From Lophium mytilinum (lineage: Eukaryota): a stretch of 64,000 nt of DNA. The position numbers were made by a program, and so were the translations under genes. The stretch is from assembly GCA_010093605.1 (NCBI GenBank), contig MU004188.1, positions 251,673 through 315,672 on the forward strand, read 5' to 3'. Under the pieces are notes generated by a model, which saw only the letters and a program-made list of their open reading frames with translations, was not told the DNA's origin and did no database searches. Below are positions 37,418-42,000 of the stretch, piece by piece (positions within the stretch are counted from its first letter, which is position 1; the number at the start of each line of letters is the position of its first letter).

Positions 37418-39915
37418 ATGGAGGCTGAAATCAGGGCCCAAATCCCTAATATCGACCCTATCCTGTCAGACTATTCCGTCGGCTACCTGACCCATGCCTC
37501 CAACTCCTTCCTCTCTGATGCAGACCCTAACGCGCCCTCGCCACTAGCTGAGGCCGCCTCCACCATCTCCGCCATCCTACTGTCCGCATCCGGAGATCTG
37601 TCAAAAGAGAATGAAGTGACCATCCAGGGCCTGGTGGACAAGTTCATCTCACGCCTGAGCGCCACTAATGGCGCCAACGGCGAGAAGAGGCAGATGGCCC
37701 CGTCGGCGAAGAGGCTTGACCAGGCCATCCACGTGGGCTCCTCCCGCAACATCTCCTCCACGCTGGGCCTGACCGGCGGCGGCGTGGACCTCGAGTCTGC
37801 CAATGCCAAAAAGGTAGAGTCGCGGGTTGACCGCAAGAAGCTGGAGAAGGCCGAGCGGAAAATCCGCGCCAAGCAGGACAAGAAGGAGATGAAAAATGTC
37901 GAATATGAGGCTTCCCGCCTGCTCAACATCCCCGATGAGACCCAGTCCTACGAGGAGTTCTTCATGCTGGTCAACCCGCTGCAACTCGGCGCGGACTCGC
38001 AGACCAAGAGCAAGGACGTCAAGATTGACGGCATCGATCTCTCGATTGGCGGTCTGCGAATTTTGAATGACACCAACCTTACTCTGGCGTATGGCCGCAG
38101 GTATGGTCTCGTAGGTCAGAACGGTATTGGTAAATCTACGCTACTCCGCGCTCTCAGCCGCAGAGAGGTCGCAATCCCCACTCACATATCAATTCTGCAC
38201 GTTGAACAGGAGGTTGGTAGCGTTCGCCCACGTTGCACGCATTGCACACTAACATGATATCAGATCACTGGTGATGACACCCCAGCTTTGCAAGCGGTCC
38301 TCGATGCCGATGTTTGGCGGAAGCATCTGCTCAAGGAGCAAGACGTAAGACTCTTCCACTCGTAGTGTGGATATATCTAATGAATCAGAAAATCACACGC
38401 GAGCTTTCTGAACTCGAGGCGGAACGGGCCACCATGGCCGACACAGCAGCAGAAGCCGCTAAGCTAGACCATCAAAGAGAGGGGCTAGATATCACTCTGA
38501 GTGATATCCACTCTAAGCTCTCTGAGATGGAGTCCGACAAGGCAGAGCCTCGTGCGGCAAGTATCCTGGCCGGTCTGGGTTTCTCACCGGAGAGGCAGCA
38601 ATTTGCTACAAAGACCTTCTCGGGTGGTTGGAGAATGCGATTGGCATTAGCCAGAGCCCTCTTCTGCGAGCCCGATCTACTATTGCTCGACGGTAGGTTT
38701 GCTCTTCCAGATCCTTAAGGAAGTAACTAACATCGTACCAGAACCGTCCAACATGTTGGACGTCCCCTCCATCACCTTCTTGTCTAATTACCTGCAAACT
38801 TACCCCAGCACTGTACTTGTAGTATCTCACGACCGAGCATTCTTAAACGAAGTTGCTACTGATATCATTCACCAACACTCCGAGCGATTAGATTACTACA
38901 AGGGCGCTAACTTTGGTACGCCACCTCCCCTACCGATATTTCTCAACGCTAACATTATCAGACATGTTCTATGCTACCAAAGAGGAACGTCGTAAGACGG
39001 CCGTGCGGGAATATGAGAACCAAATGGCCCAGCGTGCCCATCTTCAAGGTACGTGCTGCCAGAATAGCTCATGCACGTTGCTAATTTTGTCTAGCTTTCA
39101 TTGACAAGTTCCGCTACAATGCTGCCAAGTCGTCTGAAGCCCAATCCAGGATTAAGAAGCTGGAGAAGATGCCAGTATTGGACAAACCAGAGAACGAGTA
39201 CACGGTACACTTCAAGTTCCCCGAAGTTGAGAAGCTGTCTCCTCCTATCATCCAGATGAGCGGTGTGACGTTTGGATACACTCCTGGGAATGTCCTGCTT
39301 AAGAATGTCGATCTCGACGTTCAGCTTGACTCGCGTATTGGTATAGTAGGACCCAACGGCGCAGGTAAAACGACGGCGCTCAAGCTGCTTATCGGCGCTC
39401 TGGCGCCCAGCACGGGCTTGATCTCGCAGAATCCTCGCCTCAGACTGGGATTCTTCGCGCAGCACCACGTCGACGCGCTGGACCTGAACGCCAGCGCCGT
39501 CGGGTTTATGGCGGCTAAGTTCCCGGGCAAGTCGGACGAAGAGTACCGGCGACATCTCGGGGCGTTCGGTATCACGGGCATGACGGGGCTGCAGAAGATG
39601 GAGCTGTTGTCTGGAGGGCAGAAGTCACGTGTGGCGTTTGCCTGTCTCTCACTCACGAACCCGCACATCCTCGTGCTGGACGAGCCGTCGAATCACCTGG
39701 ACATCGAGGCGATGGACGCCTTGTCAGACGCGCTGAACGCCTTCCAAGGCGGTGTGCTGATGGTCAGTCACGACGTAACCATGCTGCAGAACGTCTGTAC
39801 CAGTTTGTGGGTATGTGACCACGGGACTATCGAGCACTTTGACGGGACGGTGAAGGACTACAAGCGCCGCATCACGGCGCAGGCAAACGAGGCTGGTGTG
39901 GTGCAGGCGCACTGA
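37418..39915 (+). CDS. GCN20: ABC-F protein Gcn20 (ABCF3), Gcn2 activator; 6 exons
   Basis: Two ABC domains (GQNGIGKST, FSGGWRMR, GPNGAGKTT, LSGGQKSR), no TM segments; N-terminal IDPILSDYSVGYL. Confidence 0.94.
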
Positions 39916-40724
39916 GCGCGCGTAGAAAATAAGTAGATGAAACGGCAAAGAGTATGGCTGCACTGATTCGCTCCGCATTTGAGTGAATGTCCTTGTGTGA
40001 TTAGCTCGCATATCGGGCGGCAGTGACGCTCTACGCCCCATGCCCTTGGCGGCACGAGCCAGCCGGGAAGAGCGTCTGGGACAGCCTTCTTGTTGACCTC
40101 CTCCAGCTCGCGACATCATTCAAGACCACCACCGCCCGCGCCAACACCATTCCGTACAGCTCTGCTCCCGCTGCCTCCTCCGCTTTCAATGCTGCGTGGC
40201 CCCCGCTGAGGCCGCCGACCCTGCCAATTGACCGCCAGGAGCACTTCGCCCCTGCATCGCGACCACCACCTCACGTTCACCGCACAACCGTCATCTTGTC
40301 GCAGCCAAACTCCCGCGACGGCTTGTCCGTACCCGTCACTCCTTTAAGTTCTCGTCCAGCGTCCCGCGACTGCGATTCTGCGCGCCCGCCATACTCGGTC
40401 GATCCTCCCGCCACCGAACATACCGCGCTGACCACCGCCGGCGAATCACCCTATCCCCCTCCCTTCTCATCCCTCTATTTCCCTACCGAAGGCGCCGCCC
40501 ACGATCCCAACAAGCCTTTTGTTACCAGCGGTGCCAGCGAGTCTCTCCCGGCCTTCACTCCTGCTCCGCCCTTCACCGAGTCATCGTCTTCAGCTGCCGC
40601 TGCCGCTGTCAAAGCTGCGCTTCCCCGCGACACCAAGGATAGTTCCAGCCGCGACCTCGACGACGGAGAGCCTCCTCCACCGTACAGCGAAGGATCAAGC
40701 CCACTCGACTCGTTCACCTACGTT

Positions 40725-42000
40725 ATGGCGTCCACAGGGGGCCCCGCGAGTATTATAACTCAAGTGTCGCAAGGAGGCGGACCGCCAATAAACACGCTTG
40801 GAGGTAGGGCAAGCACAAATGAATATTGGAACCATAGCTGACGAACTCATAGGCGGATCTGACGAGAACATCACCTTGGAACTACGGTAGGAACCACTGC
40901 CACATTCCTCGTTGAATAATACTAAATCAGCCAGTGGAACGCGGTTCACTCTCTCTCGGGATGAACTCCTCACCCTCCCCGAATTCGTGCTTCTCTCACT
41001 CTTCCCGAATGGTCTCTTACCAGATGGGCACATGAATTCATATCATGATGGCGATGTGTACCCGGTAGATGTTGGTACTTCCAATTCTAGTCCCGATCCT
41101 ACTCCTCCCCAATCTCGCCCCAACTCCATCCACATGATCCTCAAGCACCTCTCCAATCCCGCATTATATCTATCTGACAACATATACTCTTCCCAGTACG
41201 ATCCAAACTCGCTGCAGTACATGCTCGAATTCTTCCGGCACGTTGCACAAACTATCCCCACCTCACCCCCTTCCCCCTCCACTCTCGCCGGCACCACGCT
41301 CGGCAGCTCCGAAAACCACGCTGAAGCAGTCCCTATCGAGCCTATGCATGGGTCGGCACGCGACATGCTCCAAGACCGCGCTGGCATTATTGTGTTGCGG
41401 GAAGATTTGGACTTCTACGCGATCCCGCCACGACGAGACATCGAGCAGACGGAGATGATTGAAGTCAAGCGTGCCGCTGGCAAGGCATTGCTGAAGCAAG
41501 ACGGCATCTTCTCTGGGCTTCGAAAGAGCGAGGAGCCGGGAACCACAGAGCAGCATCTCATCGAGATGTTGACCGCTGGGTATGTTTCACCGAATACAAA
41601 ATCTCACTAGTGAGCGTAACATGAGCTAATCTCATACTTCTAGCGGTTTCAACCACGACGATAGATGGGGCCACCGCGCAGGCGAGCCCAACAAAGCCGT
41701 CATCTGCAGCATCGCGCTCGCCCGTCTCCGGACAGACATCAAAGGCAACGACCTATCTAATAGCAACGCCGTGGGCATGGCGCAGAAGCTGCTCCTCTTC
41801 TGGCGGAAACCCGCGAGGCGGTGCTGGTGGGAGGGCGTCGAGCTGAACGACGTCGAGGGCGTGGACGGCCCGCTGAAGGTGTGGATCCGGAGGGTCTGGA
41901 CGCTGGAGATGGTATGCAACGATAACCCTCACCCCTTCACATCTAAGAAACATCAAAACTAACGCGGCAGTGTTGACAGAGCGTCATTGGGCTACGCTAA
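40725..42000 (+). CDS. WHI2: Whi2-like BTB/KCTD growth regulator (AUG-initiated form; probable upstream non-AUG extension from 40296); 6 exons
   Basis: ITLELR|GTRFTLSRDELLTLPEFVLLSLFPNG, IIVLREDLDFY, EQHLIEML, QKLLLFWRKPARRCWW, KVWIRRVWTLEM|SVIGLR*. Confidence 0.9.

Follow-up and report, generated by a model that had tools for sequence, protein, structure and literature searches.

Where does translation of WHI2 begin, given that the long open frame ahead of its annotated start codon holds no ATG at all? Whi2, classed as a BTB/KCTD-like regulator, is a partner of Psr1/2 and restrains TORC1 when amino acids are low, and the accepted protein of this well-studied regulator is the one that starts at the annotated ATG. 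The question is raised by a stretch of 64,000 nucleotides (nt) from the genome of Lophium mytilinum (GenBank assembly GCA_010093605.1, contig MU004188.1, positions 251,673 to 315,672, forward strand), which is called the window here and in whose own numbering all positions are given. An earlier reading made from the letters alone (the sequence-only reading) had proposed that WHI2 starts at a UUG codon at 40296, that this adds some 143 residues with PY motifs to the N-terminus, and that two isoforms result. Having followed up this proposal with homologues, complementary DNA (cDNA) and structure prediction, we favour the same explanation, to which we give a probability of about 0.8: a long form of 449 amino acids (aa), started at UUG and carrying the motif PPPPY, and a short form of 306 aa, made by leaky scanning to the AUG at 40725. 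No AUG can serve the extension, a near-cognate codon is conserved together with its context, AUG has been purged from the stretch, and the stretch is part of the mature messenger RNA (mRNA). Both forms of Whi2 would be expected to accumulate, in a ratio that would respond to the translation state of the cell.

The ATG-free frame, its transcript and its conservation

The plus-strand ATGs between 39900 and 40900 lie, in a complete list, at 39937, 39954, 39987, 40040, 40189, 40725 and 40819, which bears out the earlier statement that all three frames lack one from 40192 to 40724. A TAG at 40002-40004 closes the WHI2 frame upstream, so that the frame is open from 40005 and not from 40023 as had been stated. 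From TTG 40296 to ATG 40725 there are 429 nt, or 143 codons; the translation quoted earlier for this region is correct, and the TTG does have A at -3 (gtcatcTTGtcg) and a Ser codon next to it. Taken alone, the window is not decisive. The stretch is C-rich (228 C in 533 nt, 43%), and the evidence from a single sequence is weak for this reason: 4.2% of 5000 dinucleotide-preserving shuffles are ATG-free and 5.9% have frame 0 open over 143 codons, and the other two frames contain only 2 and 1 stops. The case rests on comparative and transcript evidence.

The transcript evidence on the start region comes from two runs: X1, from the same organism and 100% identical to the window over the stretch, and X2, from a related organism. 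Because its contigs skip GT..AG introns, X1 is taken as cDNA, and X2 was classed in the same way, from skipped introns and not from the run records. One X1 contig covers the upstream gene, which encodes an ABCF-type ATPase, and ends at 39947 with adapter letters adjoining; a second starts at 40149, also beside adapter letters, follows the genome without a break as far as 40801 and then skips five introns. Positions 39948-40148 have no X1 cover, and nothing is inferred from this gap. The X2 contig, about 91% identical over 40135-40805 and with an in-frame 3-nt insertion after 40645, begins at about 40128-40135. The two similar 5' ends are a weak hint that WHI2 transcription starts about 150 nt upstream of the TTG, as the proposal of a start at this codon implies. 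Thus the extension lies inside the mature mRNA, in a same-organism contig that is unspliced from 40149 to 40801 and spliced downstream, and no upstream exon with an AUG is joined to it, in agreement with the sequence-only reading.

These contigs bear directly on a different account of the locus, in which the extension would be spliced to an upstream AUG. In the public model WHI2 is fused to the ABCF gene by an intron from about 39901 to 40302. When the extension and exon 1 (window 40140-40803) were used as a protein query with a cut-off of E up to 0.01, the top match among 248 was this 1227-aa L. mytilinum model (P0001, 100% identity), an ABCF protein fused to Whi2 at that junction (...EAGV, then PNSRDG...); among the best 120 of the 248 matches, 58 are likewise fused models of more than 1100 aa with ABC_tran domains, from many Dothideomycetes. 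However, the same-organism contig passes the acceptor at 40302/40303 without a joint, no contig joins the ABCF gene to WHI2, and the P0001 model leaves out the conserved TTG together with the next two codons. In other genomes, moreover, WHI2 homologues are fused to different neighbours or are named peroxin 20 or dipeptidyl-peptidase III, names that are probably leftovers of similar mis-modelling; such varied fusions and misnomers arise because gene predictors mishandle a coding stretch that has no ATG. The ABCF gene is a transcript separate from WHI2, and we consider it very improbable that the extension is spliced to an upstream AUG.

Conservation of the extension was followed in metagenome contigs, which were scanned with an alignment of the extension (A1). 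The scan matched 506 stretches, of which 141 were confirmed as relatives and 80 kept as loci, with lineage labels that rest only on likeness to named proteins. A motif of PPPPY plus the internal Met was fitted by 72 of the 80, and these, together with the window, give 61 distinct upstream translations; reading back from the internal Met to the first stop, none of the 61 has an in-frame Met. The remaining eight loci, missed by this first pattern, have the same layout under a looser one and no in-frame upstream ATG. Eight of the 80 are cut by a contig end inside the extension and are covered only downstream of the cut; every locus that is not cut has the frame open for at least 120 codons. A protein search with a Xylariaceae homologue found the region in Sordariomycetes (Xylaria, Trichoderma, Fusarium, Colletotrichum, Podospora and others) and also in Leotiomycetes (Botrytis, Sclerotinia, Monilinia), and in none of 48 further proteins of these two classes does the extension contain a Met. 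By the organism names of the hits, five classes possess the region: Dothideomycetes, Lecanoromycetes, Eurotiomycetes, Sordariomycetes and Leotiomycetes.

Conservation is of the kind expected of protein. In 123 pairs with 70-93% nucleotide identity, the ratio of non-synonymous to synonymous change (dN/dS) over the extension has a median of 0.213 (interquartile range 0.153-0.246), with all pairs below 1, versus 1.80 and 2.28 for the same pairs in the shifted frames, and 58% of the nucleotide differences fall at third codon positions. The alignments show protein-coding selection in just one of the frames, and at the protein level the extension is conserved in five classes of Pezizomycotina, as the sequence-only reading requires. 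Could the stretch nevertheless be an untranslated 5' leader, which owes its conservation and its lack of AUG to some function of the RNA or DNA? C-rich leaders do remain open by chance, as the shuffles illustrate, and leaders are AUG-poor in general. However, the low dN/dS is confined to a single frame and third-position changes dominate, the frame is open in all uncut loci, and amino-acid motifs are kept across the five classes while codons vary. Nor does the RNA after the TTG have excess structure: no hairpin was found there, the 111 nt from 40290 folding no better than shuffles (z +1.46). We give an untranslated leader almost no weight.

The UUG codon and its context

Aligned automatically, 33 of the 61 rows are in register at the position of TTG 40296, with TTG in 30 and GTG in 3; of the others, 12 are out of register and 16 have a gap there, which in 5 of the 16 is due to a contig end. 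Eight more loci were placed by eye from codon printouts, with CTG in L011, GTG or CTG before DSDGSSV in six Capnodiales-type loci and, in L053, the second of two adjacent TTGs taken as the homologous codon. The 40 curated loci have TTG (30), GTG (8) or CTG (2), and never ATG, at this place. Around it, C is found at -4 in 38 of the 40, A at -3 in 34 (G in 5), C at -2 in 34 and C at -1 in 28, which spells CACC, the preferred fungal start context. A near-cognate codon is therefore conserved at exactly the site that the sequence-only reading had picked, as NTG in 40/40 curated loci and in the CACC context.

Two independent controls agree and thereby support the site. Firstly, two other conserved leucine columns use TTG in 0/52 and 0/57 rows. 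Secondly, an in-frame stop lies no more than 20 codons upstream in 16 of 39 loci, seven of them having it only 2-6 codons away, while within 20 codons downstream of the codon there is none (0/39). When the loci are anchored at this codon, amino-acid conservation appears only from codon -4 onward. Gene calls point the same way: calls of relatives by JGI (Joint Genome Institute) begin with L or V at the site, and calls on Logan assemblies, which follow prokaryote-type start rules and include several transcript-derived proteins, begin with M exactly there; at least one of the proteins that begin so, P0017, matches loci L003, L008 and L009, in which the codon is TTG. UUG 40296 is very probably the codon used for the extension in WHI2.

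Some facts would suit a variant in which the start is near-cognate but the long form is the sole relevant product, or in which initiation is spread over ATC 40293, TTG 40323 and CTG 40221. The first two of these are in-frame codons preceded by a purine at -3. The second, TTG 40323, is kept as TTG by Pleosporales-type loci and absent from Lecanoromycete-type loci, which read DGSSV, and it may serve as a secondary start; Chaetothyriales-type loci keep an ACG two codons before the site. Within the family the PY-bearing N-terminus seems ancestral, and avoidance of AUG could merely prevent junk translation or mRNA decay. On the other hand, no candidate but the one at 40296 stays NTG from class to class, the internal Met is invariant and so is its favourable context, and the short form seems to function: Neurospora crassa WHI-2 is given as 297 aa, and a Pccg-1 whi-2-gfp allele is reported to rescue the deletion (PMC6987382). 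Provided that the complementing construct held the annotated open reading frame (ORF), the short form is active in N. crassa. We thus regard spread initiation, or a long form acting alone, as distinctly unlikely.

A start at UUG 40296 followed by leaky scanning to AUG 40725 remains our preferred explanation, and several points weigh against it: (i) the window by itself is marginal, with P of about 0.06 for the open frame and about 0.04 for the lack of ATG. (ii) The alignment behind the dN/dS values was built on the frame-0 translation, and its pairs share ancestry and are not independent. (iii) The 40 loci used for the context were chosen for having NTG at the aligned place, which biases those counts toward the claim. 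(iv) Some loci deviate. L020 has CTT at the site and opens, directly after a stop, with ACG; in L064 and L072 the site holds TTC and an ACG precedes it by two codons; in several Chaetothyriales-type loci an in-frame stop lies between the expected position and a different TTG; the open stretch is much shorter in L062 and L071, and that of L012 is open for just 33 codons before PPPF. (v) Some NCBI models (P0047, P0089, P0118 and P0119) place their initial Met 8-22 codons ahead of the site, and real upstream AUGs may on this account exist in some lineages. (vi) UUG is a weak start, and near-cognate reporter activity in N. crassa cpc-1 was less than 1% of that of the main AUG in vivo (PMC5487733).

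Two proposed forms of Whi2 and the motifs of the longer one

ATG has been purged from all three frames of the extension. In the last 300-390 nt before the internal ATG, taken from 58 loci (22,467 nt), only 3 ATGs occur, versus 193 expected from base composition; codon shuffling leads one to expect 88 out of frame, versus the same 3, and all three are one out-of-frame ATG of one lineage (L067, L070 and L076). WHI2 does not avoid ATG in general, since a 135-nt piece of exon 3 contains 268 in 55 loci. The internal ATG keeps a good context: of the 61 distinct loci, 59 have G at -3 and 60 have it at +4. For ribosomes to leak past a weak start and reach the next AUG, every frame in between has to be cleared of ATG, and the earlier proposal of two isoforms is in this indirect manner supported. 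As a separate observation, the conserved leucine columns 282 and 363 never use TTG or CTG (0/52 and 0/57), and NUG codons might be avoided inside the extension.

The events on the mRNA would be as follows. The WHI2 mRNA would begin near 40149 and be unspliced upstream of 40803. Scanning ribosomes would first reach a six-codon upstream ORF (uORF) at 40189, whose start context is weak, and next the UUG at 40296, which stands in a strong context and where a minority would start with initiator Met-tRNA. These would make the 449-aa Whi2, the first 143 residues of which would be disordered and carry conserved short motifs including PPPPY. The remaining ribosomes would cross 429 AUG-free nt and start at AUG 40725, giving the 306-aa form, which lacks those motifs.

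The uORF reads as had been stated, six codons and then a stop. Lophium and many Dothideomycete-type loci have a short uORF of 2-13 codons situated 105-137 nt upstream of the start, six codons long in eight distinct loci as well as in Lophium, and one Lecanoromycete-type lineage has one 97-108 nt upstream of the start codon; over loci L001-L059 it is conserved in position and not in peptide. That it couples the use of UUG to re-initiation and to the status of eIF2 is speculation. In its widest form the proposal would be that filamentous ascomycetes, and perhaps some relatives among the budding yeasts, make two proteins per WHI2 mRNA, that the uORF and the UUG set their ratio by way of eIF2 phosphorylation and of the stringency imposed by eIF1 and eIF5, and that starvation in this way tunes the amount of Whi2 that Rsp5 can engage and hence the restraint of TORC1; we offer this tentatively and hold it to be doubtful. 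Phosphosites S103 to S111 reported for Aspergillus nidulans WHI2 (PMC8399174) were considered as possible peptides of the extension and set aside, the numbering appearing to fit the short form by comparison with a related protein.

What would the long form add? The extension is rich in Ser, Pro and Ala, and none of the Pfam families matches its translation or those of the WHI2 exons. In an AlphaFold model of the close homologue P0003, made from a 45-sequence alignment, the mean pLDDT (predicted local distance difference test score) is 53.7, and up to residue 166 there is no secondary structure and pLDDT is mostly below 50; the extension is thus predicted to be disordered. Within it stand conserved islands, namely PPPFSSLYFP, PAF.PAPPF, ETKAALP.DTK and DDGEPPPPY(S/T)EGSSPL.SFTYVM. 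PPxY motifs bind the WW domains of Rsp5/Nedd4 ligases, and the extension has one motif of this type and one that resembles it: PPPPY at 40671-40685 is of the PPxY type, whereas RPPY at 40383-40394 is not a strict PPxY in Lophium. In Sordariomycetes and Leotiomycetes EPPPAY occupies the place of PPPPY and a second PPxY, SPPPQYP, occurs further upstream, roughly where RPPY is found (a correspondence judged by eye from sequences and consensus); the E, the PPP and the Y are invariant in 45 proteins, as PPP(P/A)Y. PPPPY thus qualifies as a candidate PY ligand that is conserved and, in a region predicted to be disordered, accessible, and in the long form of Whi2 it would bind WW domains of the Rsp5/Nedd4 type.

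The PY region appears to reach beyond Pezizomycotina. Querying protein representatives with the ORF of exon 3 yielded mainly fragments and fusions, and served only to choose distant homologues. The yeast-like ones among these (P0226, P0231, P0237, P0240, P0247 and P0191) have PPPPY, a Met within about 10 residues and then IITQV, and in front of PPPPY a Met-free region of 130-200 residues; in a cluster named for a Geotrichum protein, an annotated form of 423 aa stands beside an ORF call of 564 aa. Because it is present in Saccharomycotina-type homologues too, the PY-bearing N-terminal region looks like an old part of the Whi2 family and not an add-on. The dual-start layout may likewise be older than Pezizomycotina.

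Dual isoforms from a non-AUG start and leaky scanning are familiar from yeast GRS1 (UUG) and ALA1 (ACG) and from human PTEN-L (CUG). As proposed here for WHI2, a weak upstream start gives a minor long form, endowed with an additional function, and the main AUG a short one; in those genes, however, the extensions are targeting or secretion signals, whereas that of Whi2 consists of PPxY and other linear motifs.

Two systems stand closer to WHI2. In N. crassa the GCN4 homologue cpc-1 acquires an N-terminal extension from conserved near-cognate codons (PMC5487733). There, several codons are candidates (AUC, ACG, AUU and CUG), whereas in WHI2 one NUG dominates; the extension of cpc-1 bypasses a long inhibitory uORF2, whereas WHI2 has a tiny uORF and an extension free of AUG in all frames; and cpc-1 is backed by in vitro, reporter and ribosome-profiling data, whereas the WHI2 start is proposed here from sequence and cDNA. 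Human KCTD11 gains 39 residues from an AUU start further upstream (PMC6566181). As would hold for WHI2, KCTD11 was long annotated in truncated form from its first AUG, and it is a BTB protein, placed beside yeast Whi2 in the same review; its extension completes the BTB domain, whereas that of Whi2 is a predicted disordered region ahead of the fold. The two non-AUG starts are probably independent.

In the full-text literature searched, short of supplements and subscription journals, Whi2 is met together with non-AUG initiation only by way of human KCTD11, near-cognate starts in filamentous fungi only in the cpc-1 work and in general reviews, and a link of Whi2 to Rsp5 or to a PY motif not at all, the terms standing in separate contexts where they co-occur. 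NCU10518, the N. crassa whi-2 gene, is absent from the main text of the cpc-1 paper (PMC5487733). To that extent, no earlier description of the UUG start of WHI2 seems to exist.

If the proposal is true, the real product has 140-200 extra residues with invariant motifs, and work to date has dealt with just one of two forms, in N. crassa the one of 297 aa. Constructs and knock-ins started at AUG, like the published gene models, would then omit a conserved part of a protein that filamentous fungi require for cell fusion, conidiation and fertility (PMC6987382), and the PPxY motif would suggest a link to ubiquitin ligases. WHI2 is mis-modelled in many public genomes, and a start-codon rule would correct the models. 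With cpc-1 as the first, WHI2 would be a second starvation-response gene of fungi with a deeply conserved non-AUG start and, as judged from sequence, the feature is both deep, spanning five classes, and clean, with one dominant NUG, the CACC context and an AUG-free extension.

Features of the locus

Table 1. Coordinates of WHI2, its leader and extension, and the adjoining gene in the window
Feature	Position	Strand	Basis or remarks
WHI2 mRNA 5' leader before the proposed start	40149..40295	+	X1 contig start 40149; X2 start ~40128-40135
uORF MLRGPR, stop TGA 40207-40209	40189..40209	+	Sole AUG in the leader; 107 nt upstream of TTG
Proposed non-AUG start TTG (UUG)	40296..40298	+	Context gtcatcTTGtcg; homologous codon NTG in 40 curated loci
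N-terminal Whi2 extension, 143 codons, ATG-free in all frames, predicted disordered	40296..40724	+	Sequence, homologues, AlphaFold
Second in-frame TTG (ggcTTGtcc, DG-L-SV), possible extra start	40323..40325	+	TTG in the window and in Pleosporales-type loci
Conserved motif SPYPPPFSSLYFP	40446..40484	+	PPPFSS invariant in alignment A1, nearly so in A2
PPPPY, PPxY-type, long form only	40671..40685	+	13 codons before the internal Met; EPPPPY invariant in A1
Internal ATG, annotated short-form start	40725..40727	+	Context tacgttATGgcg; ATG in 61/61 distinct loci
WHI2 coding exons	40725-40803, 40853-40886, 40935-41070, 41197-41579, 41644-41911, 41980-42000 (stop TAA)	+	Five GT..AG joints, X1 contig
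ABCF-type ATPase gene, last exon	39085..39915	+	Pfam ABC_tran, ABC_tran_Xtn; stop TGA 39913-39915

Joined, the WHI2 exons amount to 921 nt in frame with one terminal stop (306 codons plus the stop), from which the lengths given above for the two forms are predicted. Homology to Whi2 is indicated by one cluster member named as similar to Saccharomyces cerevisiae YOR043W WHI2, and unfused matches bear names such as general stress response protein Whi2 and WHI2-like protein P4H10.16c.

The neighbouring ABCF protein carries the JGI label subfamily F member 3, which we take to be the family of yeast GCN20. To judge from the many fused models, the head-to-tail pairing of ABCF and WHI2 is conserved across Dothideomycetes, and both genes are tied to amino-acid starvation signalling.

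Intron 3 of WHI2 (41071-41196), with its 126 nt, preserves the frame and contains no stop. It is skipped in all three runs, and it is translated in many public models, P0001 included. Its 3' part is alike in several species (HLSNPALYLSD..SQ); this likeness overlaps the branch site and the acceptor, but it could also be a sign of a retained-intron isoform.

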